NCBI GenBank assembly: GCA_951406725.2
Contig: OX597818.1
Coordinates: forward strand, 92,504,001-92,568,000
Direction of reading: 5' to 3'
Source: Octopus vulgaris
Taxonomy: Eukaryota
DNA: 64,000 nucleotides
Part shown: one piece after another, positions 37,446 to 62,209 of the stretch
How positions within the stretch are numbered: position 1 is the first letter of the stretch
How the letters are laid out: every line of letters begins with the position of its first letter
The notes under the pieces: model-generated
Seen by the model: the letters and a program-made list of their open reading frames with translations, nothing else
Database searches by the model: none
Told to the model about the DNA's origin: nothing
Program-made: the position numbers and the translations under genes

Positions 37446-37518
<73 letters not shown>

Positions 37519-38046
37519 GAGTGAGAGAGCAGTGACACTGGAGTAAAATATACGAAGCCCAGTATACCCGTCATGACTACCCGTCTGATAAGGGTACACT
37601 AGGCACATGTATCACAATCATATGTGTTTGACATGGTGATCTCATATCAAGATAAACAGCACATGATCTTGCAGGTGGGGCCCAGTTATAATTTCTTCTG
37701 GTCGAGTAACCAATCCTGCACAAAATGTTCCTGAATAAGAGTTGTTTAAGGATGTTGAATGATACACCCATGTTTCCAGAGTTGAATTAATCCAACCCCA
37801 AAGAATCCCTCTCAACACATGGCTATGATGCTCCCCAACTACTTCTGCTCATGATCAGAGGTGCACATATCGTCAGCCACTAAGGGACATGCTCAACTGG
37901 TTAGGGTCAAACAAATGACAAGCAAATCTGTGGTATTCAGCAGAATATTTACTGTAGCCCGTCTTTTATACAAAACAATGTACATGATAACACTTCCAAT
38001 CAGTTAAGATAAGAAGACACGAGAGCCACTGCCTGGTACTGCATCA

Positions 38047-38128
<82 letters not shown>

Positions 38129-41100: not shown

Positions 41101-44013
41101 TAGCAGACAAAATCCTTGCCAGAATACTCATCAACAGACTAAATGCTCACTAAGAGCTCTACCGACATTGTTTTTGTTCTCATCAAATGCCAAAATTGAT
41201 AATGAAGTTGATAACATACTGGCCAATGCAAACAGTAATTTCAACAGTCTGTACAATGGTCCGCTGAAGAAAATGACTGGAAACATTGTAAACACACAGT
41301 CGTGTAAGATTGAGAGTCGTAGATCATTTATTTGTGCCCCTAAAAACCCCTTGTGTGGCTTCATCAGCGCTATCTTCGATTCATCCGCAGCATCCACTGG
41401 AGTGACTTTGTCAGCACTGAGGTCCCAGAACAGACAAAGAATCTGCCACAACGAAACAACTCTGCTGAAGGCACAGTTACCTTGGGCAAGGATGGAGTAT
41501 CATCGACTTTCTAATATCAAGCTCTATGGCTAACTTTCCTCTGGTTACTGTGATAGAAGAGTACCAAAGAAGAAGTTCAAAGTCTCCCTGAAGGAATCAC
41601 TTATTGCCTGCCACATTAATCCCCACCTGTGTCCTGTATTTGTCGCTGACTGTGAAGCCTGACATCTCATTCTGCTCTGGACAACAACCATTTTTGTGGA
41701 CACTCGCAGAACCATCGAGAGAAAATGAGGGAAAACAAGTATACTACGACCAATTCTAGCCAACCAACCCTCCAGTGTAGTCTTTCTGATCATGCCTGCT
41801 TGTCTCGAATTGGACTCGTTTGACATAAGCAAGCCTGAAAAAGACGTGAACATCCCACTCCGTACCTCTTCGTACACAAAGCCAATCCAGGATACGGACC
41901 GAAACTGTTTGTTTACGAAGTGATTCCCAAAACAAACACAATTTTATGAATTTTTCGCAGAATATCTACCTAAACTTGATATCAAATCAAAATGTAATAC
42001 TCTAAGTATATTTAGTTCTTCTTTATAACATCAATGACGTGGTATCCCTATATTAGAGCTTAATAACAATATTTGAAGGTTTATTACAACTGTAGAGTCC
42101 ATTTAATTTAGATAATAGTCCTTAAGATATCTTACTTCAAGATAAATACTACAGTAACTGGTCTATGCGCTATGCATGATACATAGAAACATTTTAAGGC
42201 GTAGGCAGGCTGTGTGGTAAGAAGTTTGCTACCTAACTACATGGTTTCAGGTTTAGTTTCACATATATACGGTATATATATATATGTGTGTGTATATATA
42301 TATATATACACACACACACACTCACACATGTTGAAAAGATAAAATTACATCAATTATTTTCATGTATTGTTTTCTTATTAATATTACTATTGTCCTAAAA
42401 CTAATATTCTTGTTTTCACAGTATAATTTCGTAACTCCATTAACATCAATGGTTATTACCAAATACAATGTGAACGAGGAACTCTTTGAGAAAGGTAATT
42501 TTATCATTCATACCATTTTAATGACAAGCTCCTGTGGTCATGATAACGAAATATTTAAACTGAGATGACTTTAATATATACGTCTTGTTGAAATGAATTT
42601 GTTATGATTGTTTAAATTACAAAATCTAAAATTATATATTATAGGTTTTATGTTTTGTTTTGTTTTTATCTTGCTTTGGGTTTTTTTAGATTTTGTAAAT
42701 GCGTCGGTTAATTCATAAAATACGATGAAAGTTTTTATGTGATATGTTTGATAAATTATCCAACATTCTGCTTTTAAACTTTTAAAATTTGTAATAAATG
42801 CACAAGATAACACGAAATTTCCGATATATAGATTTCAGAACATAATAAGCATAAATTTATTCATATATATAATATCTAGAAAATTACATTATTGTTTATA
42901 TACTTTAAGCAACGTACAGTAACGTTTAAAGTATTATCTATAAACCTCACCATAGCTACAATCACATCAGTGTACCACTGTTCTTCTCTACGCTTAGGGT
43001 ATGATTGTCATAAGGACATCTTTGAATGTTCCTTTGGTTCATCTATGAAATCTTGTTGAAAGTCATAAGCAGAGATCATAGATATTATCACATTGTGTCT
43101 GGGTATAAATATATAACTGAAGAAAGCTACCAAATAGATAGGCATGGCAACTTAAACCAGCTCAAGGGATCGTGGTTACAAACAGCAGGTTGCTTCTCTA
43201 CAATACATAACCACTCTATCCACATCTCAACGATCTATCTCATCAAATTTATGTTCATCATATCAAACATTGACAGCAGTAAAGTCTGACTAACGACTGA
43301 GAGATAAGCGACTTAATAGTATTGGAATAAAAAATTGATGGTTTTCAATAATGTTAGATTCATAAATCCTCCTTCACAATTTCTTTATTTCTCCTCTATT
43401 TTTCTTTTATGACCATTGCGCTCCTTTCTTAATGAAACTTCTCTGAAGCGGAAAAGAAATATAGTTGATGATAAGATATAACTGAATTATACTTCCTGCG
43501 CAATGTAGCAAAGACTAATTACGTAGTATATTCTAAAAATACATAATACTGCATTAATCGTATTTTAGACTGATCCGGCAAACATTTTTAGAATAATCGC
43601 TATCTTAGTATGTAACATGTTGTACACCCAAAATAAGGAAATCTTGTTATTGTTAAGTCCTCAATCGAAACCAGCAAGGAAAACAAACAGGTCTATACAA
43701 TTCAGTTATATATTGAAAAATAGGATAAAGTTTACAATGATGGCAGTACAGAGTTGATGCAAAATAAATGAATCAATAGTCAAATACTGGACAAAGTAAC
43801 ATAATCACCAGAGTCATGAGTCAAACAAGAAGATGTAGGTTCTTGATCACAGTGATTTCAATGTCGATGATGACGGTTGACGAATGGTCTTGGCTGCGAG
43901 CGTAGTTTTAAAAGCTATATAATCCAAAGTCTAAAATAATAATTTCTCTGATCCGAGGGAAACAAACAGGAGGTAACTCTAAGGCATCACTTTTTTCTTT
44001 GAGATTAATTGGT

Positions 44014-44079
<66 letters not shown>

Positions 44080-45201
44080 TATATAGTGACTTCACTGGTT
44101 CACAACCATTCAATGGGGTAAACATTTTCAATCCAAAGATAACTAAAACTTTATTATTACAATATCATAATTAAGAAAAATACATTCTCATAACATTATA
44201 TCTATGCAAGTATTTAAAAAATGGTGAAACCACTTTCTCTTCTAGTACAGTTTTCTTTATATTTTATTATTTCATGGCATAAATTATATTTTGAGATTAA
44301 TCATAAGTTCAATTTTCATATTTCTCTTCCTTTGCAGAATACCTTCCTTCACGTAAGTATGTTCAAATTTGGATTGCTTGAAACTCGAATAATATTATTA
44401 TCTCTTTCATTCATAAATCAATTTAAGTCATTTATAAAACAGACAACTTATTTTATTTCAAGTTTGTAGCTTAAGATTTTTGCTTGTTCATCTTTATTTT
44501 GCTTTTTTGCATGTATTTTAGTTGTAACAGTCATGAAGCACAAGACCAGCTTTTATAGGGAAGTGGTATCGGAAAACCAATTAACTCTAGTGTATTAATG
44601 GAACTTATTATATCGAGCCGGTGGAGATATTAGATGAAGTTTACACTATAGACTCGGTTGATAGCCAGATACAACCTTTTTTACATAGACCCACAAATCA
44701 GCAATGTAGGGAAACTGAAGTAAACCGTAAAAGACTAGTTCATAACACTACGCATAATTTGCATAATTAAGGCTGTTATCAACTAAATTGAAGCTGTGCT
44801 TGTAGAGTTAAATTCTGAACAGGCATTCTGGGCCGAGGTCTTTCGGTAATTGTTCATAATTCTTTAAAGTCCACTGAAAGAGGTGACTGAAGCAACACCG
44901 TGGTCGAAGTCGAGAATTTCTCCAGTGTCAGCCATACACTCATGTAACCCAGTAAGAATGAAAAGAAGAAGAAGAAGAAGAAGAAGAAGAAGAAGAAGAA
45001 GAAGAAGAAGAAGGAGGAGGAGGAGGAGGAGGAGGAAGAAGAAGAAGAAGAAGAAGAAGAAGAAGAAGAAGGAGGAGGAGGAGGAGAAGAAGAAGAAGAA
45101 GAAGAAGAAGAAGAAGAAGAAGGAGGAGGAGGAGGAGAAGAAGAAGAAGAAGAAATAGAAGAAGAAAAAGAACAACAACAACAACAACACTAACTACTAC
45201 A

Positions 45202-45236
<35 letters not shown>

Positions 45237-45315
45237 AAGAATGTCTTTGTCCTAGTTGTCAGGAAGACATTTGGCAAGGATTAGAAAGAAAATTGTAATA
45301 AGAAAATCCATCATC

Positions 45316-45347
<32 letters not shown>

Positions 45348-45511
45348 TCTTTCTACTAAAGGCACAGGGCCTGAAATGTAGGGGAGGGGACTAGTCGATT
45401 ACATAGACCTCAGTGCTTCACTGATACTTAATTTATCGACCCCAAAAGGATGAAAGGTAAAGTCGAATTCGGCAGAATTTGAATCGTAATAATAATACTT
45501 TATAATTTTTC

Positions 45512-45545
<34 letters not shown>

Positions 45546-48500
45546 GGAAAGCCATAGAAACACTAATATGGGCCAGTTTAGCAACGGGGAAAAATAACTC
45601 TCAAAGAATGGAACATCTACAATACCTCGTGAGTATTTGAAATTCTCTTCAAAGTGGGTTAAGAAATTTACAAATTTACATATCTGCAGCTTTCAAACAT
45701 ACATCCGATCGGCTTTAAAAACTTTAATACCCACAACTGCCTCTGTAAGCACCTTTTTTTTTTCTCTCTAAAAACATCACGCTTTTCTTTTTGTGGACTT
45801 GCAAAACCCTAAAACTTTCTATGAAAATCTGACTTTTCTTTGCTTCCTCCCAGAATATTCAAATATAAATGTAAACATATACTTTTTATTGCAAAAACAC
45901 ACCTGTTCTTCTAACTGGACATACAAACATCTCTAGAGGGGTCAACTTCAACCTCCACAATATTACCTTGCACGAAATATACAAACACTTTTTATTGCAA
46001 TAACACAAACGCACATGGAAAAAATAATGATGCTAAGATTCTCTCTGGTCGAACACAGCTTCTCTATTCACAAATAATACAGAACAGCCCTTCAAAATAA
46101 GTTAAGAAAATTTACAAATTTACATATCTACAGTTTTCAATCATACATTCGACCAGCTTTAAAAACTTTGATACCCACAATTGCCTCTGTAAACATCCTT
46201 TTTTTTTCTTCTCTCTAAAAACATCACGCTTTTCTTTTTGTGGACTTACAAAACCCTAAAACTTTCTATGAAAATCTGACTTTTCTTTGCTTCCTCCCTG
46301 AATATTCAAATATAAATATAAACATATACTTTTTATTGTAAAAACACACCTGTTCTTCTAACTGGACATACAAACATCTCTAGAAAAGTCAACTTCAACC
46401 TCCACAATATTACCTTACACGAAATATACAAACACTTTTTATTGCAATAACACAAACGCACATGTAAAAAAAAATGATGATGCTAAGATTCTCTCTGCTC
46501 AAACACAACTTCTCTATTCACAAACAATACAGAACAGCCCTTCCTTAATTTTTCTTAAGCCTAATAGTAGTAAACATCTGAACTTTTTTTGACCGATAGG
46601 ACCCCCACCTAAAAAATTAAAAAAATAAAAATTTTTTAAAAATAAAATTAAAAAAAATATCACTGATGGTGATGGTGATGATGGTGGTGATGATAATAAT
46701 GATAGTAACAGTGCTGATAATCTATCTATCTATCTACACACACACACACTCAAAGAGTTCAACCAACACAAAACCTCACCTCGGCTCTATTGTTAACCAA
46801 ATATGAAAGTATTATTTGACAGGCAAGAACTCTGGCATTGAAGACAGTCAGCCAGCCAACCACCAAGCCAGCCAACGAGACAGACAGACACTACTGTGAT
46901 GGTGATGATGATAAAAAATAACAATAATAAGATACTGCTGTGACTACACATAAAACAATATCATTGATGATGATGATGGTGATGGTGATGATGATAATGA
47001 TGATGGTAATGGTGGTGATAATGATGATAGTGATAATAATGGTGATGATAATAACAAGAATAAGCCGACTACGGCTGCTATAATGGTACGGTTATAATTG
47101 TAACGGCAATGATGGCCGTCTCCCCACGAGCCAATCAAAGCTAAAAAATGATAACATTATCGTAGCACCAAAATGTTTTTGGAAACTAAAAGGAAAACTA
47201 AATCAGTATACCAAATCGCTTGTCCTATGGTTAATCTGGAAGCGCGTCCCCCAGGGAAGAGCCAGCCTGGGATCAAAAAGTCATCAACTGGCACAAACTC
47301 TTCTCCGAATACGGACATGGATGGTCACTTGAACGGGAAATCCCCCAACTCGAGCCCTCCAAGTTCACCACCACAACCACCACAGAAAGAAAAACGTAAG
47401 CGGAACAAATGGACCCGAGAAGAGTATAAAGAAGTAATATACGCCTATTACAATGCATTATGTAGGCCATCTCAAGAGAGACACACCGCAAACTCTTACA
47501 GTATATGGAGAACACGGAATCAAGGCAGTAGGCCCTATTTGGACGAGAACAAATTAGCAAATGTGAGGAGGGATATCCTTAGAAATAACAGACTCACAGA
47601 CAGTGAAATAAGCGCGATCAAGCACGCAACGGAAAATGACATAAATATAAGACACAAAGGAAATGAAGAATCAGATGAACAGTATAGCCCGCCACGAGGC
47701 TTAATTGAAAGACTGCCATCTGACCAAAGTACGCAAAGGCCTGAAGATACAAGAAATTCTATTGTACCTGTTAAAGATAGCCAGGAAAACGAAAAAACAA
47801 CAGTAACTGAAGATCTCGCATTTGCTGAAGAACACAGAGAGTCTATGGCAGAAATGAGGCAGAAAATCCTGAATACGCTTGAAGTTGTAAGACATACAAG
47901 TATGAATGATAGAGAACCACTTCATAAACTCTCAAATACAAACCAAAATAAAAAACAAATCCAAATTGGCAACTATGTAACAAATGAAATAATACGAGAA
48001 TTAAAACCTGATTTTACTGAGTTAAATGAAATTATTTACGCTTCTGCTAGGGCAATTGAAACCAGCTGTATGCCCCCGAAAAAAACAAAGAAAACAAAAC
48101 CTGGGAAGAAATCAAGCCTGGAGAAGTAAAATTGAAAAAGAGATTGAATTTATGAGAGGGGAAATATCAATACTAAATTAACTAATATGTGGAAATGATG
48201 TAAGATCCAGAACAGGAAGAAAGATGAAGAGAAAATTTGGATCCTCACCAAGAGAAGAACTGATATCAATAAAAGAAACGCTGAAACAAAAAGTCCAAGC
48301 AAAAGCCCAAAGAATACGAAGATTTGAGAAGAGAAACAAGTTTTACAAGCAAAATAAGCTGTTCACATCCAATGCCAAAAAATTCTACAGAGAAATAGGG
48401 AAGGAGAAAGTAACCGTTAAAGACCCCCCCTCCCATGGAAGAAGTTCAAAACTTTTGGAAAAGGATTTGGAGTGACAAGAAGATGTACAACATAAATGCA

Positions 48501-51500
48501 GACTGGATTATACAAACTGAAGGATCCTACCAAAATTTACAACAAGCATGGGAAGATATCACAATAGCAGACCTAAGAAAGGCACTCACGAAGGCCCATA
48601 ATTGGAAATCCCCCGGTAAAGATAGGGTGCCGAATTTCTGGCTCGCATCGCTCCCATGCGCACACGGTAAGCTAGTTCAGCTGCTCAATGGAATTATGAG
48701 AGACCCAAAGAAAACACCTGAATGGTTAGCAAGTGGCATTACTTACCTACTCCCAAAGAATAACGAAACCAACCTTCCAAAAAACTATCGGCCTATAACC
48801 ACGTATATCCACCACGTATAAAATCCTAACATCTATCCTGGCGGAGAAAACATATGCATTCATGGAGAAGAACGATATTTTCCCCATTGAACAAAAAGGG
48901 TGCCGCCGAGGCTCTTACGGATGCAAAGATCAACTGCTAATCAATCGTATGATCCTTGAGAACTGTCACAACAAGCGCAGAAATCTCAGCACCGCATGGG
49001 TTGACTATAAAAAGGCCTTCGACAGTATACCGCATCCATGGATCTTGAGATCGCTGGACATCTTCAAAATTTCCCCTGTGATTTCAAACTTCCTGAAGCA
49101 CAATATGTCGTTGTGGAATACGAATCTCCAATTATACCACTCTAATGGAGTACTTGCCTCAGAAAATATAAACATCAACTGTGGAATTTTTCAAGGTGAC
49201 TCACTTTCACCTTTAATATTCTGCATAGCCCTAATACCCCTTACAAGTGAATTAAACAGAACAGGGTATGGGTATAAAATTGCCAATAAAAAAATAAGCC
49301 ATCTATTTTATATGGATGACTTAAAACTTTATGGTAAAGACAATAATGAACTTGAAGGCCTATTGCGCACCGTGAAAGCATTCAGCGATGACATCGGGAT
49401 GGAGTTTGGACTTGAGAAGTGTGCCAAGGCCACTTTCCAGAAAGGGAAAGTGAAGACCACAAATTCAGTCGTGTTAGATGTTGACACAGTCATAAGAGAG
49501 CTTGAGCAAGAAAAAACATACAAATATTTAGGGATAAATGAAGGCTCTGGTATTCAGCATGCAAGCATGAAAGAGAAGATCAGGAAGGAATGTTATAGGA
49601 GAGTTCGTGCAGTCCTGAAATCTGAACTAAATGCACGTAACAAGGTGTTAGCTATAAATTCCTTAGCAGTTCCAGTTGTTACTTATAGCTACAATGTGTT
49701 GAACTGGAATATGAGTGAAGTAAAGAATATAGATAGGAAAATACGCAAGCTGCTGAGTTGTAATAGGATGCACCACCCAAAGGCAGACGTAGATCGCCTT
49801 TACCTTCCCAGAGCCCAAGGAGGTCGAGGCCTGATCCAATTTGAACTAGCTTACAAAACAACCACAATTGGACTGGCCAAATATCTCGAAATATCGAATG
49901 ACTGGATGCTAAAGCTCGTGGAAAATCACGAGAGACGAAAGAAGCTTCATTCTATTATAAAGGAAAGCAAAAATTTTGCTATTGATCTCGTGCAGGATAC
50001 CCAAACTGAACAACCCGAGGGAAGTATGGCAACTATTGTTGCAAAGAAGGTGAAAATGATGGCAACGAAAAAAGCGCACGAGCAATTGGCTGATAGGTGT
50101 GAGGAGAAATCTCTGCACAGCAAATATGTGACCCGCAGCAAACAAGCTGATGTTGACCAGAAGCAAACCTATCAGTGGCTACGGAGCTCAGGGCTAAAAG
50201 CAGAGAGCGAAGGTTTCATCCTGGCTGCTCAAGATCAAAGCCTATTAACCCGGAACTACCAGGCCAATGTGATGAAAAATGGAGCAGACCCAAAATGCCG
50301 ATTCTGCAACGACATGATTGAAACAGTGGACCACCTAATCTCTGGATGTAAAGTCTTATCACCAGTGGAGTATAAATTAAGACATGACAGAGTTGGCCAA
50401 TATCTCCACTGGCTAATAAGTCGGCATTACAATATCAAAACTGCCGACAAGTGGTATAATCACCACCCTGAGGTTGTAACTGAAGGAGAAAATGTAACCA
50501 TTCTGTGGGACTTTCCAGTACATACAGACCGAACCATCAAGGCCAATGAACCAGATATTGTTGTGAAAGACCAAAACAATAAAGTTTGCTTATTGATCGA
50601 CATGAGCATCCCCTGTGATCATAATATCTCAGCGAAAGTGTTTGACAAGCTCAGAAAATATAAAGACCTACTCATTGAAATTGAGAAAATGTGGCATCTC
50701 AAGGCGGTTACAATACCAGTGATCGTAGGAGCACTAGGAATGATCAAGAAGGGAACCGAAAATTATATGAGAATGATCCCTGGCTTACCATCCCTGCAAG
50801 AAGTGCAAAAGATTGTCTTAACTGGTACATCACATGTATTGAGAAGAGCATTGTCGATGTGAGAACTGTTGCTGCTCATGTATTTTAATTTAAGCTAAAA
50901 AAAAAAAAAAAAAAATTAACGAACTATTGAGTTTGGTTTAATGGCCTACCAATGTATACTATGAGTTTCTTTGCCCTTGGAGTCGGGAAGACACTCGGCA
51001 AGAAATGGAAGCAAATTTGAAAGAAGAAAAAAAAACAATAATAATAATAATAATAATAATAATATTGATAGTAATAATAATAATGATGATAATGAACCAA
51101 ATGAGAGTGATTAGGAGGAAGGGATACTTAACTAGAGTAGAAATATCTCGGATTAGTGAGAGTCTGAGGGACCTGCGGATGGGCTACAAAATATGGTCGG
51201 AGTTGAAAACAGTGAAAAGAGTAGAAGGAAGAGGGGAATGCTGATGGGGCTGTTAAGGATGAAGAACAGGAATGTTATACGGTGAACCCTGATACTGTGG
51301 AGGGTGGACTTGTAGGGGAAATGAACCAAATAGATAATGAATTGCTTGAAATTCAAAAACGGCCCATCGAGTTGAAGAGTGCTTCAAAAGAAAAGATCCT
51401 CATGAATATGTGAAGGGTAGATAGGAGTATGATAAATAAAGTAACACAAACGATAAATACTGTCATACCATACATCAAGACGGAGGGCATAACAGAAGCT

Positions 51501-54500
51501 ATTGCGCTACTTGTTGAAGAGAAATTACAATTTAAGAGAACAAAAATGGTGGAGCAAAAGAACCAAGGTGGAAACGACGCATTGAAAGGGACATAATGAC
51601 TTAGTGGCTGACAATAAGTGCATCTCTGGTCAGGAGCAGAGGTAGTGGAGGAGCATCATAACCATGTGTTGAGAGGACTTCTTTGGGGTTTGAATAATCC
51701 ATCTCTGGAAACATAAGTGTTATGGTCATCATCTTTAAACAAACCTTATTCAGGAACCTTTTAAGCGGGGTGGACTACTCGATCTGAAGAAAATTCTAAC
51801 TGCAAGGTCATGCGTTGTTTATCTTGATATGAGATCACATTTTCGTGCACATATGGCTGTGATGCATGTGCCTGATGTACCCTTATCATACGGGTAGTCA
51901 TGATGGGTCTATTGGGCTTCGTACAATATCCAGCAGTTTAGTTTTTATTTCCCTATGTACATTGACAAATCCCAACAATGAATGACAACAAATACAAAAC
52001 TTTATATCAAAATTCTATTATATTTAGAAGAAACCCAAGCCAAAAAAACAAACCTCTATGAGGTCGAATTGTTTGCAAAAATTTGTGTCGAATTGTCTGC
52101 AAAATATTGTGTCGAATTTGCCAAATTCACACGATATTTCTTTCAAATGTAGGTATAATGTTTTCGTAGAATATCGCGTAATATTGGCTTTTTTTTTTAC
52201 TTAAATCAGAGAATATAGCACCGTAGAAATAAGTTCCAGTTTGAAGTACATAGACATACTCGACGGAATTTCATTCTTAAAAGAATAGCTGAGTAATACG
52301 TAATACCTAATCTATCTCTTCTGATAAAATAATTAGATACAGTTGATCAGGAGGCTCATCTGCAATAATCAGGGATCTTTAATCCTAAACCAACTATACA
52401 ATATTGTTTATATGTAATGATTATTCTTCAAATATATGTGAAAATAATTATTTATATATTTCGCATTTTCATATCCCTATAATATGTTTATTGCTTTTTT
52501 CAGGATTTGAGAATCAAGGTAAGTAGATAATTATTTCATAATATATTTAAATTCATAATGCTGCATTTAATTTTTAAAATTCATCAAAATTTATAAGTAA
52601 ACAAGCCTGATTATGGGGTTAACAAACTCGCTATGCAACCGCGTAGTGAGACTGAACAATTTTTCGGGTTCAGCCCCACTGCACGGTACCTTGTGCAAGT
52701 GTCTTCTACTATAGTCCCAGGTCGGTCAATGCCATGTCAGTGAATTAGATAGAAGGAAACTCTAAAAATATGTCTTTCTATCTGCATTTGTCCCCACCAC
52801 AGCTTGACAACCAGTATTGTTTTCTTTTCATCCCTGTAACTTAGTCGTTTGGCAAAAGGGTCGATAGAATAAGTAGTAGACTTTAGAATAATCAATGGGA
52901 TCAATTTGTATTTAATTCCTCTTTTAAGTCAGTGCTCCAGTACGGTTGGAATTCTATGAGTAAAACAAGTAAAAGCCAAAATATGAATCAGCATATACCA
53001 AAAGACACACTTGTATCTATGGCCCATTGAATAGAAATGAAGATTCTCTTGTCTTGGCTGAAATACAGCTGAAGATCTTTTTGTGAAAGATCTGCAATGG
53101 TTTTCTGAAAATTTTTAAACTTTCAAAGGGATCTCGAAGTCCTATCGTTTGAATAAAAGAATATATTTATAATTAAGTGAAATACATTTTAATATTTTAC
53201 ACGTGAAAAAAAGAAGGTGCCAAGCTGACAGAATCGTTTGCGCGCCAGGCAAAAATGTAATGAGTTATGAGCCCAAAATTTGGTCCCCCTTGTTCGGGTC
53301 TTTTCTCAACAACATCATAACTCCACGGGTCATGGCGTTGAGAATTCCCCCGTTCTCCTCCCAGCTGATGTAGACATGCACCACAACGAATGAGGCATCT
53401 GCACATGCACATGATGTTGCTACAAGCCTCTGAAATCGAGTTAACGCGTGCTGTAGGTATGCGTCAGGGCGGATGAACAGAGAATCCTTTTCAAAAATTT
53501 CCCTTTCCTCTCAGGATAATGAAGGTGAAGTTAAGTAGTTTGTGTCTTGTTGTAGAGCACTGATCTCCAGATAACAGTTGGGTCTTTGAAAAAAAGTGAA
53601 AAAACTCCTGCCTAATATTAGTCCCAGAAACTATGTCTCAATGGCCGCTCGGAATGAGTTATTATGTATATGAATACAATAAAGCCAATCTTTATTCTGA
53701 AGATTATTTAGTCAAGATGGAACGATTGTGTTCATCTTCTGGCAAAATAGTAAAACGCAGTTGCTCAGAAAATTCTAAATAATTGTATCTGACACCACTC
53801 TTTTATTTAGTTATTTATTTATTGTTATAACAATAACAAAAAACAAAAGCCAGAAAAATTTTTTGTTGCAGTGTCCATCCTCGCCAGTCACCTACCTTTC
53901 AACAAAATTGCTGGAAGGAGGGGGCAGTACTTTCCTCTCCACCCTCACCTTTTCAAGTCTAACTTGAAAATAGTCGATGAGGATTTGGTCTAAGGGGAAA
54001 GTATCTTCCTTCAGTCCTTCCAACCTCGTCCATCATACAACCTCTTTCGTCATAACTACCACATAGAAGAAAACTACTTTCCCTTCCCGGCTAAAAGAAG
54101 GCAGCAGAGCGATCTTCTCGGTGGAATCGGCTGATAACCGGATCTGTCCTACATACATCAGGAACTGTTCGAGAAAACTCCGTCAGACAGCAGTACCTGG
54201 ACACTGGACGAATCCATGCAGACCGATTTCGTCACTCTGCGCTAATCTCAGTTCTTGTCCACTTGGAGGTCTGGACAAAACTAGACCCCAAGCAATTTAA
54301 GCGGTCTTTTCGTCCATCACCCCACGACACTGTTGTTTAGCATAGCTCTGCTTCCCCAGATGCCGAGCTGCAAACTTCTTTTTAATCTTTACTCCTGTCA
54401 CCGCTTCGTACTTCCTTAAGTTAGTACTGATCACCTTGATTTCCGAAATATTCGACACTTCTACAGTGACGTCCACCGCATAAGCCGAAGCAAACATTCT

Positions 54501-57500
54501 GGAGCCTAGTTAACGCGGGATGCCCCTCGAAACATTCAACTTTCTTAGTAATGGCTCGAGAGCCAGCACCGACAGAAAAGGCGAGACTGGGCAACCTTGA
54601 CGGAACGAACGTGCGATGCTAATCGATTCCGATAGATGGTCAATTACTTTTACCACCGAACATTGCAGCGATCAAACCTCTGAGAACAGGACCGAAACTA
54701 GCTGCCGTGAGCCTAGCCTCAACGTATTGATGATGGACCCAATCTAAAGCTTTTTATTGATCCAACTTGATCAGGGCCACACATATGACAGGTTCCTTTC
54801 CTACCCTCTCTCTGATGTAGCATGTGTGCTGGGGGTTGTCGTGGATAGATCTGTTTGAGATAGTACAGTCTGCGCGTCACCTACCAGATTATCGGCAACA
54901 AACTCAACCTCTTGTCTAACACCTTGTCCAAAGTCTTTTAATCTACATTCAGCAAAGTTATGGGCCCTCTTGTTCGGTTCTTTTCTCAACAGTATCATAA
55001 CGCCACGGGTTACAGCATTGGGAATTCCCCCCGTTATCTTCCCAGTTGATGTAGACACGCACCACGAGATCACGCAACAAGTCTGACATATGAAAACAAA
55101 GCTCCAAGGGCAGACCACCCAACCCCAGTGACTTCTCTCTTGTGAAGCTTATCATCCCGTTCTTTATGCCAGCAGCTGTTATCAGCATTTCACAGAACTC
55201 CGCATCCCTGGCCTAAAGGTGTGGCATTCCAATGAGGTAAGAGGTGAAATCCATCCCGTTCCCAACTCACCTCGTACTCCGTACAGTTCGGCAAACTTCT
55301 GTTGAATTTCTGCACACATCTACTAAAATTTGAGCAGCATGCGCCCGTTCTGGACCGTCAAAGACTGAATTATGTCTTTGTTACCACGTTGCAATTCTTC
55401 CCTCATCGAACGACTTTCCACCCCTTGTGTCTTAGCACATGTGCCCTAGCTCTGACAACACAACCTTCGTGTTTGGCATTGAAATATTGAACAAGAATCA
55501 ATCTCGCCGCCACCGTCCCTCATGTAGCTTCCTAACTAGGTCTGCCTCTAAGACTATATTTACTAAACCTTACTGCCTTTACTCTAATAGCCCGAGGGCA
55601 AAACAATGCGTTCATACACATACTCGACGGACATTCGTTGTTCTAAAGAATGCTTAATTAATTTGTGGTGCTTAAGCTAACTCTTCTAATCGAAGGATTA
55701 AATACTTTTGATCAGAAGGTCCATCTGCAATAATCAATGATCTTCAGTCCTAAACTATCTATACAATATGGTTTGTGTTGGTTTTTATTTGTTATTCTTT
55801 AAATGTATGTGAGCCTAATCATTTATATATTTGATGTTTTCATATCGCTATAATACTTTTATTGTTTTTTGCTTTTTCAGCGATAGTGATACATGGTAAG
55901 TAGATAATTACTTCATGTATTTATATTCATAATTTTGCAATTTTATGAAAGATTTATTTATCAATTTTCAACTATCACCCTGCTCAGTTGTCTGGTTAAC
56001 AAACTAGCTTTACAAACATCTGTTTTCCAGTTCAATCCCACAGCGCGGTACCTTGTACATGTGTCTTCAACTATAGTCCCGGACCAGCTAATGCCTTGTG
56101 AGCGAAACTGATAGATGCGCGTTCGTGCGCGCGTTTGTGTCTTTGTGTCAGCGTTTGTCCCTACCACAGCTTGACAACCGATATTGATTGCTTTACGCTC
56201 CGTAATTTAGTCGTTTGTCAAATGGAATCGAGCAATATATTTTTAATGTATCCTTTAAGGCAGTGCTCCAGCATGGCCGGAACCTTATGAGTGAAACAAG
56301 TAAAAACAAAAATACGAATCAGCATACACCAAAGACACACTGGTATCTATGACCCATTGAATAGGAATGAAGAATGTTTTGTCCTGGCTGAAAGTCTGCT
56401 GGAGAGTTTTTAGTGAAAGATCTGCAATGGTTTTCTGAAAAATTTAAGCTTCCAAAAAATTCGGGGATCTCGAAGTCTTATCATTTGAATGAAGGAAAAT
56501 ATTTTTAATTAACATTTTTTAATATTTTACATGACTACAGTTAATAATTTGGTTAAAGACTGCGGTTAATAATTCTTTGGGTGTGTGATAAGTAGCTTGC
56601 TTACGAACCACATGGTTCCGGATTCAGTCCCACTGCGTGGCACCTTGGGCAAGTGTCTTCTACTATAGCCTCGGAAACGGAAAGAAGCCCGTCATATATA
56701 TGTATATATGTCTGTGTATGTGTGTGTGTCTGTGTGTGTGTATGTGTGTGTATGTGTGTGTGTGTGTGTGTATGTTTGTGTGTCTGTATTTGTCCCCCCC
56801 CCAACGTCGCTTGACAACCGATGCTGGTGTGTTTACGTCTCCGTAACTTAGCAATTCGGCAAAAGATCCCGATAGAGTAAGTACTAGGCTAATGAAGAAT
56901 AAGTCCTGGTATCGATTTGCTCGTCTAAAAGCGGTGCTCCAGCATGGCCACAGTCAAATGATTGAAACAAGTAAAAGAGTAAACTAACATATGGATTGTC
57001 TCTATGCAATAGGAGATCAAACCTCACTCGAAACAGCAATAACTTTAAACACAATAAAGCTTGTATCATGATAGGATATTGGGTGTTTTGAAGATCATCA
57101 TCCTTCAAGTGCCAAAAGCGACTCGGGTATCTGCGCATAAGGGGATGTTGCTACAAACCTCCGAAAGTGAACTAATGCATACTGAAGTAACTGAATAAAA
57201 ATTTAGTGAGACTGTGTAATGGCAGATGTCCAATCCTTTTTTTTAAATGCCTCTCAAGTTACCGATGATGCAATCAAATAGTTTGTATCCTGTTGTAGAC
57301 CCCCCGGGGCTCCAGACAAAAATTGGGGCTTGTGAAAAGAGCGAAAAAAGTCCCGTCTAATATTAGTCTCACAAGCTGTGTCTCAATGGCCACTTAGTGT
57401 ATATGTATGCAATAGTGTAATTTCTCTTGAGGGCCAACCTTTATTCCAAAGGTTATTTAATCAACATGGAGCGATTGCATTCCTCTTTCTGCAGGAGAGT

Positions 57501-58408
57501 AAGACGCAGTTGTTCAGAAAATTCTGTATCTGGCAACACCATGTTTTTGTTTTGTTTTGCTGTTGTTTTTTTTTTTTTTCTTTTTGTCATAACAACGAAA
57601 AAAGAAAAATTAGCAGCAATTGTTTTTGTTATAGCAAACAGTCCGCACTATAATTTCATCGTGTCCCCCCCCACACACACACACACAAACACAAACACAC
57701 GCGCACACACGTACATGGACACGTACGAACATACACACAAACATACACACATACACACATCTGCAAATATCTCTCAAAATATATCACATAAATCATTTCC
57801 TCATTTTGTGTCCTAAATACTTAAACTCATTAGTGACACATAGACCGCAAACTCATTAGTAACACATAGACCACAAATTATGGTAACATATGTCTAAACG
57901 CATACGTTAACATAAATATATTTACATTTGGTATAAACTTTGATAAATTATGGTGTTTCGGTCTAAATTGCCCCAAGCAATCAGACAGATAATTTTGAAG
58001 TTACTTTTAGTGGAATCATGACCCATTCAAATATGGAGTTATTGTTAACTGAGATGTATCCATGTATGGGTGGCTTGTCTCGCATCCTTTGGAGATATTT
58101 GTTCAGATAGCGTTTAAAGATGATGGAATCTTTTTCATTTCTTTGCTTATTCAGAAACCTTTTGAGCGGGGTGGACTACTTGACCTAAAAAAATTTCTAA
58201 CTAGGCCCCCGCCTACAAGGTCATACGCTGTCTATCTCGATATGAGATCACCATATCGTGCACATATGATTGTGATGCATGTGCTTGGTGTACTCTTATC
58301 AGACGGGTAATCATGATGAGTATTTTGGGCTCCGTATATTTGTACTTCTTTGTCACTTTGACGGCATGCACTGCTCTCTCACTCAATAATAATAATAATA
58401 ATAATATA

Positions 58409-58480
<72 letters not shown>

Positions 58481-58495
58481 TACTATTACTATTAC

Positions 58496-58543
<48 letters not shown>

Positions 58544-58557
58544 TTTTATTATTATTA

Positions 58558-58599
<42 letters not shown>

Positions 58600-60508
58600 C
58601 ATTATTATTATCATTATTATTATTATCATCATTATTATTATTATTATTATACCTTGATGTAGTACCAGACAATGGTTCTCATGGCTTCTGATCTTAACTG
58701 ACTGGAAGTGTTATCATATGAATTGTTTTGTCTTGGTATAAAAGATTGGCTACAGCAAATATTCGACTCAATAGCACAGATTCAATATTTTCATTAAGGA
58801 CATACTTATATTCCAAGCATTTGTTACGGACTCTTTCATGAAATAAAAACTATTCCACTAGATCATATTATATAGTAGATTAGGAACCAAAATATAAAAT
58901 AATTTTCTACAACATAACATAACAGTTGACCATATTAGTATGGTATATTGTCAACTGATTTTTGGAACAATATTGGAATTATTACGTTTATATATTTGTT
59001 TTGCAAGATTTTTGATGTGGAATCGTGTGTTGAAACAGATATTGTTGTATTTAGGAATGGTCATTTTGCCAGTTTAGCCAATAAAAACACACGCACTATA
59101 TATTTGGTGTTACTTTGCTTCAGCGCTATTTATTTTTTACATTAATCTTAATCATATTTCGTCCAGAGTTCTTTCGTCACGCTCCTGTGACCGGATCAGT
59201 GGTCCTTTGCTTTCTTCTGATGCGGTCACAGGAGTGTGACGAAAGAACTCTGGCCGAAATAAGATTAAGATTAATGTAAAAAATAAATAACGCTGAAGCA
59301 AAGTAACACCAAATATATAGTGCGTGTGTTTTTATTGGCTAAACTGGCAAAATGACCATTCCTACATACAACAATATTGGAATTATTATTTTCTAGATTA
59401 ACGGAAATATTCAAAATTGTATATTTTCAAAACTATGTAATAAATCTGTTAATTATTTTACGCATTTACGTTAACATCAATATTTTTAAAATTCCTATTT
59501 TCATAAAAATATGAAATGTTTATAATTTTTACAGATTGTACCTCAATGAGTGTGTAGATTTTTCATAACCATAAAACACACACCTAGATAGCATTGAATT
59601 ACAATCGAGATTAATTTGCTTGTAACGCTTTCAAATAGACACACATTTGTTTGCGAGTGTACGTATGTATGCATTTATGTATATGCACAACATAAATATA
59701 TATACTTCTGTTTCATGTTCATGCACAAAAAAAATGGGTTTACCTATAACTATTCAGTGGTTGTTTATTTTAAAGTATACGTTCAAACTAGTTAATGACG
59801 AAAGACTGTTTTATGAAATTTAATTTACATTTTTTTTTTTTTATTATTTCATTATTTTTTTCATTTTTCAGTCAAAGATCAAGAACCGGAATTTTGTGAG
59901 TACAACAGCTTCGTTGCTTTACTTCCCTATATATATAGCATCACTAATATCTGAACACATTTTTTTCAATAATATTGATTACTACATTACACAATGCATA
60001 ATATTGCAAAATACTTTTGAATCCCTGAAACATACAAATTACATAGTACTCGGTGTATCGGTAACGTTTGGTCTATTTCAGTTTTCAATCCACATTTCAA
60101 ATTAGTTATTTTCTCTATACTAGTATAATATTAATAACGTAGTGGGCGAGTGTTCGACAAATAAATCAAATTTGACTAAATAGGAATCACAACAATATGA
60201 ATAATTTGTCAAATATAATATACTCCTTACGAACATATATGTATATATTCCAAATGATATTTAAGAACTCTAACATAAAAAAGTATTCCTCGAAAATGTA
60301 TAGTATAGCATATCAAACATCACAATATATAAATATTTTCTTGAGGTTAATATAAACACGAGATGCTTCATTTTAATGATATCATATACGTCATAAATTC
60401 ATAAAATTTTCATATCGATTTCAAAAACACACCGAAACTTTGAGTAAAACTTTCATTCATAGTGGAGTATATGTCTTTCTATGAATGTGTGTGAGTGTGT
60501 GTGTGTGT

Positions 60509-60554
<46 letters not shown>

Positions 60555-60884
60555 TGAGTGTCTTGTGTGTGTGTGAGTGAGTATTTTGTTTGCGTGTGTG
60601 TGTTGCGTTTGTGAGTTTGTTTTAAATATATATAGCGCAGGAGTGGCTGCGTGGTAAATAGCGTGCTTACCAACCACATGGTTCCGGGTTCAGTCTCTCT
60701 GCATGACACCTTGGGCATGTGTTTTCTGTTGTAGGTTCGGGTAGACCAAAGACTTCTGAGTGGATTTCATAGGCGGAAACATGAAGAAGCCCGTCATATA
60801 TATTCATGTGTATGTGTGTGTGTGGCTTTGTGTTTATCTCCCCACCATCACTTGACAACCGATGCTGGTGTGTTTGCGTCCCCG

Positions 60885-60933
<49 letters not shown>

Positions 60934-62209
60934 TGAGTTTGTTTTATATATATAGCGCAGGAGTGGCTGCGTGATAAGTAGCTTACTTACCAACCATACG
61001 GTTCCTGGTTCAGTCCCACTGCGTGGCACCTTGGGCATGTGTCTTCTGCTGTAGGTTCGGGGAAAGAAACACAAAGACACACACACACGCACACACACAT
61101 GCGTAAACAACCAGAGAAACAAATGGAAAAGGGATAAGTAACATAAAGAACGACCCTTCATCAGTTGTCGGCTGCCTAAATACTCCTCATTTCGAGCTTT
61201 GAACGACAATATGAGTCTTCGAAGGCAGCTGCTCCCACAAAATCCAAAATAAATTTGGGGATTTATGGAGGGTCAATGATGGTAACAAACGATAGTTAAG
61301 TATGAGCAACGAGAGAGAGTAAAGGAGAAAGTGGGGGAGGGAGAGAGACAGATAGAAAACGGTGAAGGGGAGAAAAACGGAATTTTCAGCACACACCTAA
61401 TTTAATATTATTTTATTCCTGCTGGTATAATACTGACAGCGTGGGTAATTTTTTGTTTTTTCTTGGAGGAGAGGACTTCAATCAAATTTCATTCGATTCG
61501 GATACCTGTATTATGAATAACTTCTTGAATGTAATATTTTCATTAAGGTCATGCATTTTTTACGAAATCTATCATGACATACAAACAATTCCACTAGATC
61601 ATATATTGTAGAATAGGAACCAAAATATAAATTTTCTTCAATATAACACAACATTTAACAATAGTAGTAACGTAAATTGTCAATCTATAATATGGTAATT
61701 ATTATTATTATATAGATTAACATACATATTGATGGTCTATATTTTCAAAACTATATAATAAATCTGTTAATTATTTTATGCATTTACGTTAACATCAATA
61801 TTATAAAGATTCCTATTTTCATCAAATATTCAATTTTTATAACTTTTACAGATTTTTGCCTCAATGAGTGTGCAGAAATTTCATAGGCATAAAACACACA
61901 CCTAAATAGCATTGAGTTAAAATCTGTATTCATTTCTTTATAGTGCTTACAAATGGACATGCATTTCTATCCGAGTGTGCGTATGTTTGCATTTATGTAT
62001 ATACACAACGTAAATATATATACTTCTCTTTCATGGTCATACCACAAGAGATTATTTACATATGAACTATTCAGTGGTTGTTTATTTTGAAGTATACATT
62101 CAAACTAGTTAGTAAGGAACGGTTGTTTTATCAGAATTAATTTACATTTTTTCTGGTTTTTTATTTCGTTTTTATCATTTTTCTGTTGAAGATCCTGAAG
62201 CGGAAATTG
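11214..62209 (+). CDS. ITIH-like secreted protein (signal peptide - VIT module x2 - vWA - ITIH core - micro-exon linker). Multi-exon, 3' end probably outside the window. Model: join(11214..11291,21505..21662,22461..22571,22673..22923,25379..25542,27520..27677,30648..30758,30850..31100,32702..32862,36339..36627,38358..39043,42422..42494,44338..44352,52504..52518,55881..55895,59878..59895,62192..62209)
   Basis: All junctions are GT-AG with compatible phases and no in-frame stop. ITIH hallmark motifs: [124 protein letters not shown]. The micro-exon part is less certain than the core. Confidence 0.9.
11632..12926 (-). mobile_element. Near full-length degenerate mariner (~1.3 kb)
   Basis: TAcga..TIRs; transposase remnants [48 protein letters not shown]; frameshifted. 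Confidence 0.9.
13973..14345 (+). mobile_element. SINE family A
   Basis: Full head-to-tail match with the other copies. Confidence 0.88.
14451..15420. repeat. Long inverted repeat, ~360-bp arms (14451-14815 / 15065-15420), ~250-bp spacer
   Basis: e.g. attggtcagttgaaatttaaaaacaaaagaccagct vs agctggtcttttgtttttaaatttcaactgaccaat. Confidence 0.9.
16097..16484 (-). mobile_element. Internal mariner fragment nearly identical to 12001-12385
   Basis: Same sequence, no TIRs. Confidence 0.9.
16940..17440 (-). mobile_element. Degenerate Tc1/mariner-type transposase remnant
   Basis: [29 protein letters not shown] motif. Confidence 0.75.
18593..19115. mobile_element. Non-autonomous pogo/Tigger-like DNA element inserted in (GATA)n
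   Basis: Perfect TIR TAccgtaaatcctcgagtata / tatactcgaggatttacggTA, with (GATA)n on both sides. Confidence 0.85.
19290..19511. mobile_element. Mariner-derived MITE
   Basis: TIRs tacgagagggtgctgaaaagtttctgg / ccaggaactgttcagcacccccacgt; remnant of transposase C-terminus on the - strand. Confidence 0.75.
20530..21115 (-). mobile_element. Head-to-tail trimer of SINE family C
   Basis: Three ~175-bp units starting tttctttac(t/a)acccacaaggg; only the last carries the tRNA head. Confidence 0.85.
21505..21662 (+). CDS. VIT module copy 1, exon a ([52 protein letters not shown])
   Basis: tttcag| acceptor, |gtaagt donor, 158 nt, paralogous to 27520-27677. Confidence 0.85.
21970..22405 (+). mobile_element. 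Tc1-like 3' remnant, partly shared with the paralogous intron (30395-30607)
   Basis: [14 protein letters not shown] (WPPNSPDxNPMDY-like), [17 protein letters not shown], ends gcactctgta. Confidence 0.75.
22461..22571 (+). CDS. VIT module copy 1, exon b ([36 protein letters not shown])
   Basis: ttgcag| acceptor, |gtaatt donor, 111 nt, phase 2-2, paralogous to 30648-30758. Confidence 0.85.
22673..22923 (+). CDS. VIT module copy 1, exon c (..[23 protein letters not shown]..)
   Basis: ttccag| acceptor, AAG|gttggc donor, 251 nt, VIT C-terminal motif. Confidence 0.9.
23260..23772 (-). mobile_element. Internally deleted mariner, present only in module copy 1
   Basis: [38 protein letters not shown]; tacgag/ctcgta ends; empty site at ~31385. 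Confidence 0.88.
24959..25210 (+). mobile_element. SINE family B, copy-1-specific insertion
   Basis: Flanked by atatgacactg / atatggcactg duplication; absent at the paralogous site ~32560. Confidence 0.85.
25379..25542 (+). CDS. VIT module copy 1, exon d ([33 protein letters not shown]..)
   Basis: caatag| acceptor, |gtaagt donor, 164 nt, ends in phase 0. Confidence 0.85.
26693..27143 (-). mobile_element. SINE (family B') interrupted by a ~155-bp insert
   Basis: Reverse complement of 35002-35306, with foreign sequence at 26942-27097. Confidence 0.8.
27520..27677 (+). CDS. VIT module copy 2, exon a ([35 protein letters not shown])
   Basis: ttttcag| acceptor, |gtaagt donor, canonical VIT motifs RFA and FISNFSM. 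Confidence 0.92.
30648..30758 (+). CDS. VIT module copy 2, exon b ([36 protein letters not shown])
   Basis: Canonical VIT GEVKEK..AK.IY motif, GT-AG, 111 nt. Confidence 0.92.
30850..31100 (+). CDS. VIT module copy 2, exon c
   Basis: 251 nt, GT-AG, FDISVNV/LTYQELL motifs. Confidence 0.92.
32702..32862 (+). CDS. VIT module copy 2, exon d
   Basis: aaacag| acceptor, |gtaagt donor, 161 nt, RVEYDVDR motif. Confidence 0.9.
34562..34725. mobile_element. hAT/Charlie-like MITE
   Basis: Termini ccgtgtttcccaaa / ttgggaaccattg, imperfect 8-bp TSD tcttagac / ccctagac. Confidence 0.65.
35002..35306 (+). mobile_element. tRNA-derived SINE (family B')
   Basis: A box tagcctagtgg, B box ggttcgaatt. Confidence 0.85.
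36339..36627 (+). CDS. ITIH-like vWA exon 1 ([35 protein letters not shown])
   Basis: MIDAS DxSxS, cgcag| acceptor, |gtaagt donor. Confidence 0.95.
37518..38046 (-). mobile_element. ~530-bp non-coding interspersed element flanked on both sides by (TTA)n
   Basis: Related copies at 51600-51925, 58155-58385 and 58655-58775. Confidence 0.75.
38358..39043 (+). CDS. ITIH-like vWA exon 2 and downstream core ([37 protein letters not shown])
   Basis: 686-nt open exon, ctcag| acceptor, AAG|gtgagt donor, many ITIH motifs. Confidence 0.95.
41160..41860 (+). mobile_element. Degenerate RTE-clade LINE 3' part
   Basis: [45 protein letters not shown] remnants. Confidence 0.75.
42422..42494 (+). CDS. ITIH-like exon [24 protein letters not shown]
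   Basis: Highly conserved FVTPLTSMV motif, cacag| acceptor, AAG|gtaatt donor, ends in phase 1. Confidence 0.93.
44338..44352 (+). CDS. 15-nt micro-exon (E)YLPS
   Basis: tttctcttcctttgcag|AATACCTTCCTTCAC|gtaagtat. Strong sites, phase 1-1. Confidence 0.7.
44963..45237. repeat. Compound (GAA)n/(GGA)n/(CAA)n/(CTA)n microsatellite
   Basis: Directly visible. Confidence 0.95.
45659..46543. repeat. ~440-bp direct tandem duplication
   Basis: Unit ttaagaaatttacaaatttacatatct...agaacagcccttc at 45659 and 46102. Confidence 0.9.
47060..51036 (+). mobile_element. Near full-length R4/Dong-clade non-LTR retrotransposon (RT + CCHC + restriction-like endonuclease), disrupted
   Basis: [77 protein letters not shown]. 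Single ancestral ORF 47173-50862 broken by ~3 frameshifts and a TAA at 48179. (TAA)n at the 3' junction. Confidence 0.92.
51085..51600 (+). mobile_element. Older degraded Dong-like N-terminal fragment
   Basis: [16 protein letters not shown] and ccaaggtggaaacgacgcattgaa (PRWKRRIE) remnants. Confidence 0.55.
52504..52518 (+). CDS. 15-nt micro-exon (R)FENQ
   Basis: ttgcttttttcag|GATTTGAGAATCAAG|gtaagt, phase 1-1. Confidence 0.75.
53870..55300 (-). mobile_element. Degenerate L1/Tx1-type LINE RT region
   Basis: Minus strand RQGCPVSP (54580-54606) and SAYAVDVTV (YADD-like) remnants. Confidence 0.7.
55881..55895 (+). CDS. 15-nt micro-exon (A)IVIH
   Basis: ttgctttttcag|CGATAGTGATACATG|gtaagt. Flanks are paralogous to those of 52504-52518. 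Confidence 0.75.
56580..56985 (+). mobile_element. SINE family A
   Basis: Match to the other copies. Confidence 0.85.
58385..58651. repeat. (AAT)n then long (ATT)n microsatellite
   Basis: Directly visible. Confidence 0.95.
58983..59375. mobile_element. Fold-back element, ~170-bp arms, short loop, long target-site duplication
   Basis: Same family as 800-1165. Flanked by repeated acaatattggaattatta. Absent from the paralogous site ~61690. Confidence 0.8.
59878..59895 (+). CDS. 18-nt micro-exon (D)QEPEF; alternative in-frame acceptor at 59872 gives 24 nt
   Basis: Long T tract, ttttcag|tcaaag|ATCAAGAACCGGAATTTT|gtgagt. Confidence 0.65.
60634..61060 (+). mobile_element. Two tandem SINE family A copies with duplicated upstream (TG)n/tgtgagtttgtttta flank
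   Basis: Heads at 60634 and 60954. Confidence 0.8.
62192..62209 (+). CDS. 18-nt micro-exon (Y/D)PEAEI
   Basis: tttttctgttgaag|ATCCTGAAGCGGAAATTG|gtgagt, paralog of 59878-59895. Confidence 0.65.

Follow-up and report, generated by a model that had tools for sequence, protein, structure and literature searches.

A tandem array of symmetric micro-exons in the putative protease-bait linker of an Octopus vulgaris ITIH gene

Human ITIH4 carries a susceptible region at residues 633-713 that is cut by several proteases, and trapping of the protease needs a metal-bound MIDAS, an adhesion site that depends on metal ions (PMC7793589; PMC11538491); this bait-and-trap mechanism has been shown for the human and mouse proteins, and the susceptible region lies in exons 15 and 16, both left out of a human brain isoform (PMC12455821). 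In the alpha-2-macroglobulin (A2M)/TEP/CD109 proteins of Biomphalaria, scallop, shrimp and Drosophila, splicing is known to diversify the bait region, with 12 exons spread over 30 kb in BgTEP2 (PMC7016707), and very small symmetric exons are typical of the micro-exon genes (MEGs) of Schistosoma (PMC4350168). Here we describe an ITIH gene lying in a 64,000-nucleotide (nt) window of the 2.8-Gb Octopus vulgaris genome (assembly GCA_951406725.2, contig OX597818.1, positions 92,504,001 to 92,568,000, forward strand), analyzed together with 200 kb of flanking sequence on either side; coordinates above 64000 or below 1 are called extended and equal the contig position minus 92,504,000. A first-pass annotation of the window had proposed that five micro-exons may encode a combinatorially spliced bait or recognition segment in this gene's linker, and the three parallels that it invoked (the ITIH4 region, TEP/A2M and Schistosoma) are indeed in print. 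We found no published work on octopus or cephalopod ITIH micro-exons or their splicing, in a search with the subscription literature largely outside its coverage.

Between the last core exon, which ends at 42494, and the next large exon, at extended 134940, we find 23 phase-1 units of 15-24 nt with strong splice sites. They total 432 nt, are spaced 1.5-8.2 kb apart and span ~89 kb, so that the array ends 69 kb beyond the window (extended 133390; Table 1). Where the first-pass annotation had noted the lack of a large exon for over 21 kb, the gap is real but its actual length is 92 kb, and the downstream scan that it suggested turned up 18 more strong units. The five units within the window have AG acceptors, pyrimidine tracts and GT(A/G)AGT donors, and phase 1 stays open after exon 42422-42494. 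Under a strict scan of 42495-64000 the plus strand yields exactly these five, all multiples of three, and the minus strand a single candidate of 35 nt; 200 local shuffles of the same sequence gave a mean of 0.19 candidates and a maximum of 2. The site check and scan thus place all five where they had been proposed, with one amendment: four stand as given, but the fourth is most likely 59872-59895 (24 nt) rather than 59878-59895 (18 nt). It has two in-frame acceptors 6 nt apart, and both annotated proteins that cover the gene read the first, gaining two residues; 59878 was therefore rejected as the main acceptor.

Those two proteins are CAI9723174.1 of O. vulgaris, which matches the window exons at 97-100% identity, and the O. 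sinensis RefSeq model XP_036358745.1, which matches the large vWA exon at 97%. Contrary to the earlier expectation that gene predictors miss such exons, both include all five segments. Sixteen of the 23 strong units are found in CAI9723174.1 and one more has a counterpart in XP_036358745.1 (compared by eye); the remaining six are in neither, are near-identical copies, and are candidates for use. All 24 strong candidates in the 92 kb have a length divisible by three. The same holds for all 32 strong candidates in the five linkers of the gene cluster described below, whereas only 3 of the 7 candidates found outside linkers and 3 of the 6 minus-strand ones are multiples of three; duplicated units are not independent counts in these tallies. 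After six Ile-type units there also recurs a candidate of 39 nt, in phase 1 and free of stops, whose donor is GTGAGC (window 62407; extended 71457, 79028, 96863, 106851 and 126452), and is in neither annotated protein.

The array grew by duplication of exon-plus-intron blocks. Self-comparison of the region gives blocks of 0.7-6.9 kb, exon included, with 66-99% identity. Micro-exons 4, 5 and 6, a weak-donor 18-nt family and the PEAEI/PEAEF-type units have shared flanks (75-99% in the pairs compared) and so are likely to descend from one 24-nt exon, whereas the 15-nt AAxxF units form a second family; unit 2 is a duplicate of unit 3, with flanks 73% alike and exons alike at 7 of 15 positions. In the 18-nt forms the first AG has been lost and the second, 6 nt inside, is used. 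The weak-donor family has also left seven decayed copies, six with a dead donor and one, near 120904, without an acceptor. In the three oldest duplicate pairs, which were picked out after the self-comparison had been seen, the exons are less alike (7/15, 17/24 and 13/24) than the flanks (0.73-0.84), with a combined P of 0.0009; in the six recent of the nine pairs, the exons are no more diverged than the flanks (P 0.48-1), and over all nine the excess of exon divergence is not significant (P 0.089).

Tandem duplication of exon-plus-intron blocks gave an array of symmetric phase-1 micro-exons, in which copies have been born and lost by single splice-site changes. Because the units are symmetric, gain, loss or skipping of any one should be harmless to the frame, and the length and sequence of the linker could change quickly without a frameshift. 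The locus thereby records both the growth and the decay of a micro-exon array, with the passage from 24 to 18 nt by acceptor loss and with donors at every stage, strong, weak and dead, next to one another. What is new here is this visible birth-and-death history and the scale of the array; the exons themselves are already in public gene models, which, together with the known splicing of the susceptible region in human ITIH4, reduces the surprise.

For the use of these units in the message we turned to sequencing runs. Twenty-four runs were listed for the vWA exon, none of them recorded as RNA, and 15 of guessed RNA type hold the exon or part of it; we analyzed four of the 15, from three studies, all as assembled contigs, which drop rare variants and whose loose ends are readable for 30 letters. 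In all four runs, the contig that leaves the core at 42494 continues straight into micro-exon 1 and then micro-exon 2, which, with the inclusion of all five segments in the annotated proteins, bears out their identification as coding exons; the annotated proteins are the basis for placing units 3-5 in the message. There is one such contig per run, unbranched over 147, 253, 112 and 252 nt, and the five units total 87 nt. If any one of the five were skipped, a unitig with k=31 would be expected to stop at 0, 15, 30, 45 or 70 nt, so the dominant path has no branch within the five units. The combinatorial skipping first proposed for these five thus runs against both the contigs and the annotated proteins. 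The first five units appear to be mostly kept, rather than never skipped, since contigs drop rare forms; low-level or tissue-specific skipping is compatible with the contig data.

At the 3′ end, three of the four runs cover exon 134940-135014, and in all three the last unit, 133376-133390, stands before it, itself following the tail of an Ile-type unit; the loose letters upstream of the exon number 60, 64 and 171. At extended 133700 there is a 12-nt candidate whose splice sites are good, but it is missing from all three contigs. The gene is spliced in all four runs, with contig depth up to ~490-675 in one. One run also holds intron contigs at a depth of 19-36, compared with ~600 for the exon, as expected of some unspliced precursor RNA or DNA. 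A protein search with transcript-derived linker fragments gave three matches, none of them a new isoform, and the ink peptides (20 of 27 places viewed) were assigned to paralogue transcripts, with none among those assigned to the window gene. The gene's repeat motifs had no match in the searchable part of the ink-proteome table, a result that weighs neither way.

On paper, the array tolerates almost any skip. As had been claimed for the five window units, every order-preserving subset is in frame and stop-free (32 of 32); the accompanying claim that each skip alters the junction residue holds for four of the five single skips but fails for segment 3, whose loss leaves the residue unchanged. 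For 27 units (the 23 strong plus four weak-donor ones) and their flanks, only 3 of 406 possible junctions give a stop. The 23 strong units comprise 17 distinct sequences, from which 4.2 million distinct chains could be made, most differing in repeat number; because most later units are near-identical, these chains would differ mainly in length.

The repeat part is where we see signs of variability. It differs between CAI9723174.1 and XP_036358745.1, which are models from two species. If all 23 units were joined in one chain, contigs should end 138 nt forward and 49 nt backward, and none of the four runs fits (in the three with a backward end it lies at 60, 64 or 171). In a simulation of 222,167 random single chains (distinct chains from about a million subsets, reference alleles only), the contig-end pair 253/64 arose 32 times, and the pairs 147/60 and 112/171 never arose. 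These ends fit skipping, allelic copy number or a mixture with unspliced RNA, and we take them as a hint only, since the alleles of the samples are not those of the reference.

Relatives of this gene offer clearer cases of skipping, drawn from gene models or single reports, with isoform indels compared with the exons of this genome wherever it has a counterpart. A neighboring paralogue has five O. bimaculoides isoforms, which vary in three blocks of 5-6 residues and show four skip combinations; for two of these blocks the genome has matching exons, 18 nt long at extended -13350 and 15 nt long at -10308. Three isoforms of another O. bimaculoides paralogue differ in two blocks, and in every one of the five other paralogues examined one or more exons measure no more than 27 nt. 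At -95 kb lies a paralogue for which a transcript in the O. vulgaris ink-proteome table (PMC10142993) and the annotated protein CAI9723172.1 both lack the candidates at -88362 and -86440, each of which lies just 53 nt from a used exon. These two pairs of exons 53 nt apart (extended -88362 to -86426) are possible mutually exclusive micro-exons, kept so by steric exclusion. In the paralogue at 89.9 Mb, the third of three micro-exons is present in the O. vulgaris model and missing from the O. sinensis and O. bimaculoides models. At extended ~-15541, an 18-nt stretch with a strong donor and no AG acceptor resembles (by eye) an exon that is alternative in O. bimaculoides, and is likely a dead micro-exon here. 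Seahorse ITIH4-like RefSeq isoforms X1-X6 (XP_019736231-6) likewise vary in this linker, where in-frame stretches of 4-14 residues come and go, which suggests that short cassette exons are widespread there; unlike the octopus gene, these belong to a vertebrate lineage with no tandem repeat array seen, and the likeness is one between protein isoforms.

The protein itself is an ITIH. In the orthologue, Pfam finds two VIT stretches followed by VWA above cut-off, which is the domain order of ITIH heavy chains, and a profile built from 19 octopod sequences has human ITIH4 as its best match (E 3.8e-113), with ITIH4 (9c4f_I) and ITIH1 the best among solved structures. The linker aligns with human ITIH4 residues ~601-725 (9c4f_I) and so covers the susceptible region, in agreement with the earlier placement of a coding linker there. 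A first structural model of the orthologue from 19 sequences was unusable, with a predicted local distance difference test score (pLDDT) of 38.6, whereas one from 119 sequences has a mean pLDDT of 73 and a fold that matches ITIH1 and ITIH4, the second VIT module being poorly resolved. In this model, residues 834-952 fall below 50, flanked by the folded core on one side and on the other by a C-terminal domain that is folded and beta-rich; the linker is thus predicted to be disordered and matches in position the long unstructured stretch of ITIH4. The DPH-type C-terminal domain that had been expected did not appear. The DPH consensus, which marks bikunin-linked heavy chains of the ITIH1/2/3 type and serves their self-cleavage and linkage to proteoglycan, is present in 11 of the 17 other proteins listed, but none of the 10 named octopod ones, a few of which are truncated models, has it. 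A Pfam scan gave no match to PF06668 and did not recognize the C-terminal domain. Lack of that consensus is shared with ITIH4-type proteins. Macroglobulin-domain and thioester Pfam families, as found in A2M/TEP proteins, are absent from the nine proteins scanned. Several assembly-derived proteins of 650-666 residues (P0033-P0035, P0077-P0084 and P0112) end soon after the core in a hydrophobic tail and may be ITIHs anchored in the membrane; two fall with the octopod clade.

Despite these likenesses, we rejected orthology to ITIH4. A 33-row tree, built on the region of a single exon, flagged for long branches and lacking human ITIH4, separates the cephalopod-type genes as a clade (100/100 support) from the vertebrate H3/H4-like rows. 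Within that clade, a long branch leads to the window gene and its O. sinensis orthologue, 0.25 as against 0.09 to the sister clade; there was no O. bimaculoides orthologue among the proteins found. The protein is best described as an ITIH that most plausibly works like ITIH4 by analogy, without being its orthologue and without one of its defining features, the full MIDAS.

Compared with ITIH4 (PMC7793589), the octopus protein has in common the VIT and vWA core, the absence of the bikunin-linkage consensus, a long variable disordered stretch in the same place and a degenerate C-terminal domain, and in ITIH4 the exons of that stretch are skipped in a human brain isoform (PMC12455821); it differs in having at least 23 tandem exons of 15-24 nt, a linker that is acidic rather than proline-rich, two VIT modules and Asn at the fifth MIDAS position. 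Its octopus paralogues (XP_014784808-12, XP_052823894-6, CAI9723172.1) also have phase-1 micro-exon linkers, and their annotated isoforms differ by whole micro-exons. Theirs number only ~1-8 (lower bounds) and encode basic, Arg/Pro/Thr-rich linkers beside a full MIDAS; in the window gene they are roughly three times as numerous, and most are recent repeats. The A2M/TEP/CD109 baits resemble it, by analogy, in their variable protease-exposed segment and in their tandem exon arrays, but those are unrelated thioester proteins with mutually exclusive exons and covalent trapping, whereas here the symmetric micro-exons are additive (PMC7016707). With Schistosoma MEGs it shares very small symmetric exons in a secreted protein, and its mosaic of folded and micro-exon-encoded parts recalls VAL-6; unlike MEGs, which are mostly micro-exons, here they encode ~144 of ~1180 residues (PMC4350168).

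Taking these observations together, we put slightly better than even confidence in the following account: ~23 symmetric units arose by tandem exon-plus-intron duplication and encode a disordered linker that is likely an ITIH4-like bait, with the first five units mostly kept and the later repeats variable, by skipping or by copy number. The linker would lie exposed between the ITIH core and the C-terminal domain and be cut there. It appears to have turned acidic and hydrophobic (K+R 0.05 and D+E 0.18, versus 0.10-0.22 and 0.02-0.09 in six other octopod linkers), with units ending in Phe or Ile, where paralogue linkers are rich in Arg, Pro and Thr. Such ends suit chymotrypsin-, elastase- or thermolysin-type enzymes. 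Because of this composition and these unit ends, cutting of the chymotrypsin, elastase or metalloprotease type is to be expected rather than of the trypsin type, and paralogues with different linker chemistries might cover different protease classes.

Several points weigh against this account. The fifth MIDAS residue is Asn in the window exon, although the other four ligands are kept; Asp is kept in 117 of 119 aligned ITIH-like sequences and in the paralogues, and among the octopod proteins listed only the orthologue shares the Asn, and only it has two VIT stretches. With a fifth metal ligand of this kind, the canonical five-residue site of ITIH4-type bait inhibitors, in which cleavage of the linker leads to a non-covalent inhibitory complex, is incomplete and trapping after cleavage is doubtful for the window gene's protein, as judged from sequence; the ITIH4 mutants reported in PMC7793589 covered the two Ser and the Thr of the MIDAS, not the fifth-position Asp. 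The linker's proline content of 9-11%, compared with 17.3% in ITIH4, argues against a plain ITIH4 mechanism. The C-terminal domain gives a weak profile match to the canonical one (E 0.0024, probability 12%; reversed control 0.5). The transcript evidence consists of contigs of guessed RNA type, read letter by letter for units 1, 2 and the last; differing alleles in the samples and unspliced RNA or DNA in one run weaken the contig-end argument, which also depends on the rules of contig assembly. Finally, the last exon is incomplete in the assembly, and we found no published test of cleavage, inhibition or other function for a cephalopod ITIH.

Some of the same points suggest a different history, in which the array is no bait but a constitutive acidic spacer that grew largely neutrally, by tolerated unequal crossing-over of symmetric exons in repeat-rich introns, in a fast-evolving paralogue that may have lost its trapping or be in decay itself. 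The long branch, the change of MIDAS Asp to Asn, the recent copies no more diverged than their flanks, the seven decayed copies, the incomplete last exon and the missing O. bimaculoides orthologue would all fit. We nevertheless regard it as unlikely: the frame is open for 1034 codons (start codon, both VIT modules, vWA exons, 23 units and two C-terminal exons) with splice sites intact, the gene is spliced in four runs and to considerable contig depth in one, the strong candidates in the 92 kb all stay multiples of three, and O. sinensis has a complete gene model with the same first five units.

Less probable again is that all units, the five included, are freely skipped to give a large combinatorial bait or recognition library, perhaps regulated by tissue or infection. 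Stop-free subsets and junctions, the millions of possible chains, the combined skips in the O. bimaculoides paralogue, the divergence of the three oldest pairs and the parallels in snail and scallop TEP/A2M (PMC7016707) speak for such a library. It has to contend with the single unbranched contig over the five units and their retention in both annotated proteins, with a possible variety that is mainly one of length, and with an exon divergence that loses significance over nine pairs, the oldest three having been chosen post hoc. It is very improbable that we are looking at splice-like sites arisen by chance in repetitive intron sequence: the later units do lie in duplicated blocks, so that counts are not independent, six are in neither annotated protein and the well-formed 133700 candidate is missing from three contigs, but the joining of units 1 and 2 to the upstream exon, five candidates against 0.19 expected, and the segments' presence in proteins of two species refute it for units 1, 2 and the last, leaving it for single late copies.

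The preferred account, a mostly kept first part followed by a varying repeat part, leaves combinatorial use of the array unproven; the array itself is a new and extreme form of a known kind. If the repeat part is combinatorially spliced, molluscs would have a second, unrelated scaffold for a splice-diversified protease bait beside A2M/TEP. On a broader and rather doubtful view, octopus would hold an anti-protease repertoire on ITIH scaffolds, in which a cluster of paralogues would differ in bait chemistry, each made of symmetric micro-exons that arise, are retuned and are lost through block duplication and single splice-site changes. The window gene's 23-27-unit array would then be combinatorially spliced into many linkers against proteases that cut at Phe or Ile, whether from microbes, from prey or from glands of the octopus itself; if true, a vWA-trap inhibitor would contain a source of diversity like that of MEGs, with no link to alpha-2-macroglobulin. 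In any case the locus forms a natural test set, with basic and acidic linkers, intact and altered MIDAS, and units that can be added or taken away one exon at a time.

Table 1. Features of the window gene. Positions above 64000 are extended coordinates.
Feature	Position	Strand	Support or remark
First coding exon; N-terminus hydrophobic, by eye a likely signal peptide	11214..11291	+	100% match to CAI9723174.1; helix 2-20 in orthologue model
First VIT module (exons 21505-21662, 22461-22571, 22673-22923, 25379-25542)	21505..25542	+	AG/GT sites, open frame
Second VIT module, tandem duplicate (exons 27520-27677, 30648-30758, 30850-31100, 32702-32862)	27520..32862	+	Open frame; 81-94% alike to first set
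vWA exons (36339-36627, 38358-39043)	36339..39043	+	Pfam VWA; MIDAS D-x-S-x-S and T kept, fifth residue Asn
Last core exon, 73 nt, phase-1 end	42422..42494	+	Contig-covered in 4/4 runs
Micro-exon 1, 15 nt	44338..44352	+	Contig loose end in 4/4 runs; both annotated proteins
Micro-exon 2, 15 nt, duplicate of micro-exon 3	52504..52518	+	Contig loose end in 4/4 runs
Micro-exon 3, 15 nt	55881..55895	+	Splice sites; both annotated proteins
Micro-exon 4, 24 nt (18 nt from tandem second acceptor 59878), 24/18-nt family	59872..59895	+	Both annotated proteins
Micro-exon 5, 18 nt, 24-nt family member with first AG lost	62192..62209	+	Splice sites; both annotated proteins
18 strong units beyond the window, 15, 18 or 24 nt (starts)	68471, 71231, 77163, 78806, 86426, 88117, 93796, 96641, 100558, 102241, 106639, 114866, 116590, 121774, 126230, 129045, 130525, 133376	+	
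Weak-donor 18-nt family (GTCAGT)	68701, 70970, 78544, 130218		Matches a unit of the O. sinensis model
C-terminal exons	134940-135014, 135784-135888, ~136207-136473; last-exon remnant 138662-138718	+	

The two VIT stretches recur in the O. sinensis model XP_036358745.1. The last coding exon is incomplete in the assembly (extended 136680-138718): its first two thirds are missing and its final 19 codons follow a 2-kb (CATA)n array, so that either an assembly error or a shortened allele may be at hand. A genome-wide search for the missing part, with the paralogue exon as query, found only two paralogue exons. The window gene is one of five tandem ITIH paralogues in ~470 kb, with a sixth 2.6 Mb upstream; CAI9723174.1, at 2709 residues, is one annotation that merges three adjacent paralogues. 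Elsewhere, the contig segment C15:19262520-19383677 holds nine tandem, apparently intronless VIT-domain frames (six of them 772-859 codons long), with one more at C14:61484526, as if from a separate VIT expansion. Within the gene, the intron between micro-exons 1 and 2 contains, on the plus strand at window 47155-50862, a long interspersed nuclear element (LINE)-type element with a 687-codon frame that matches reverse transcriptase.

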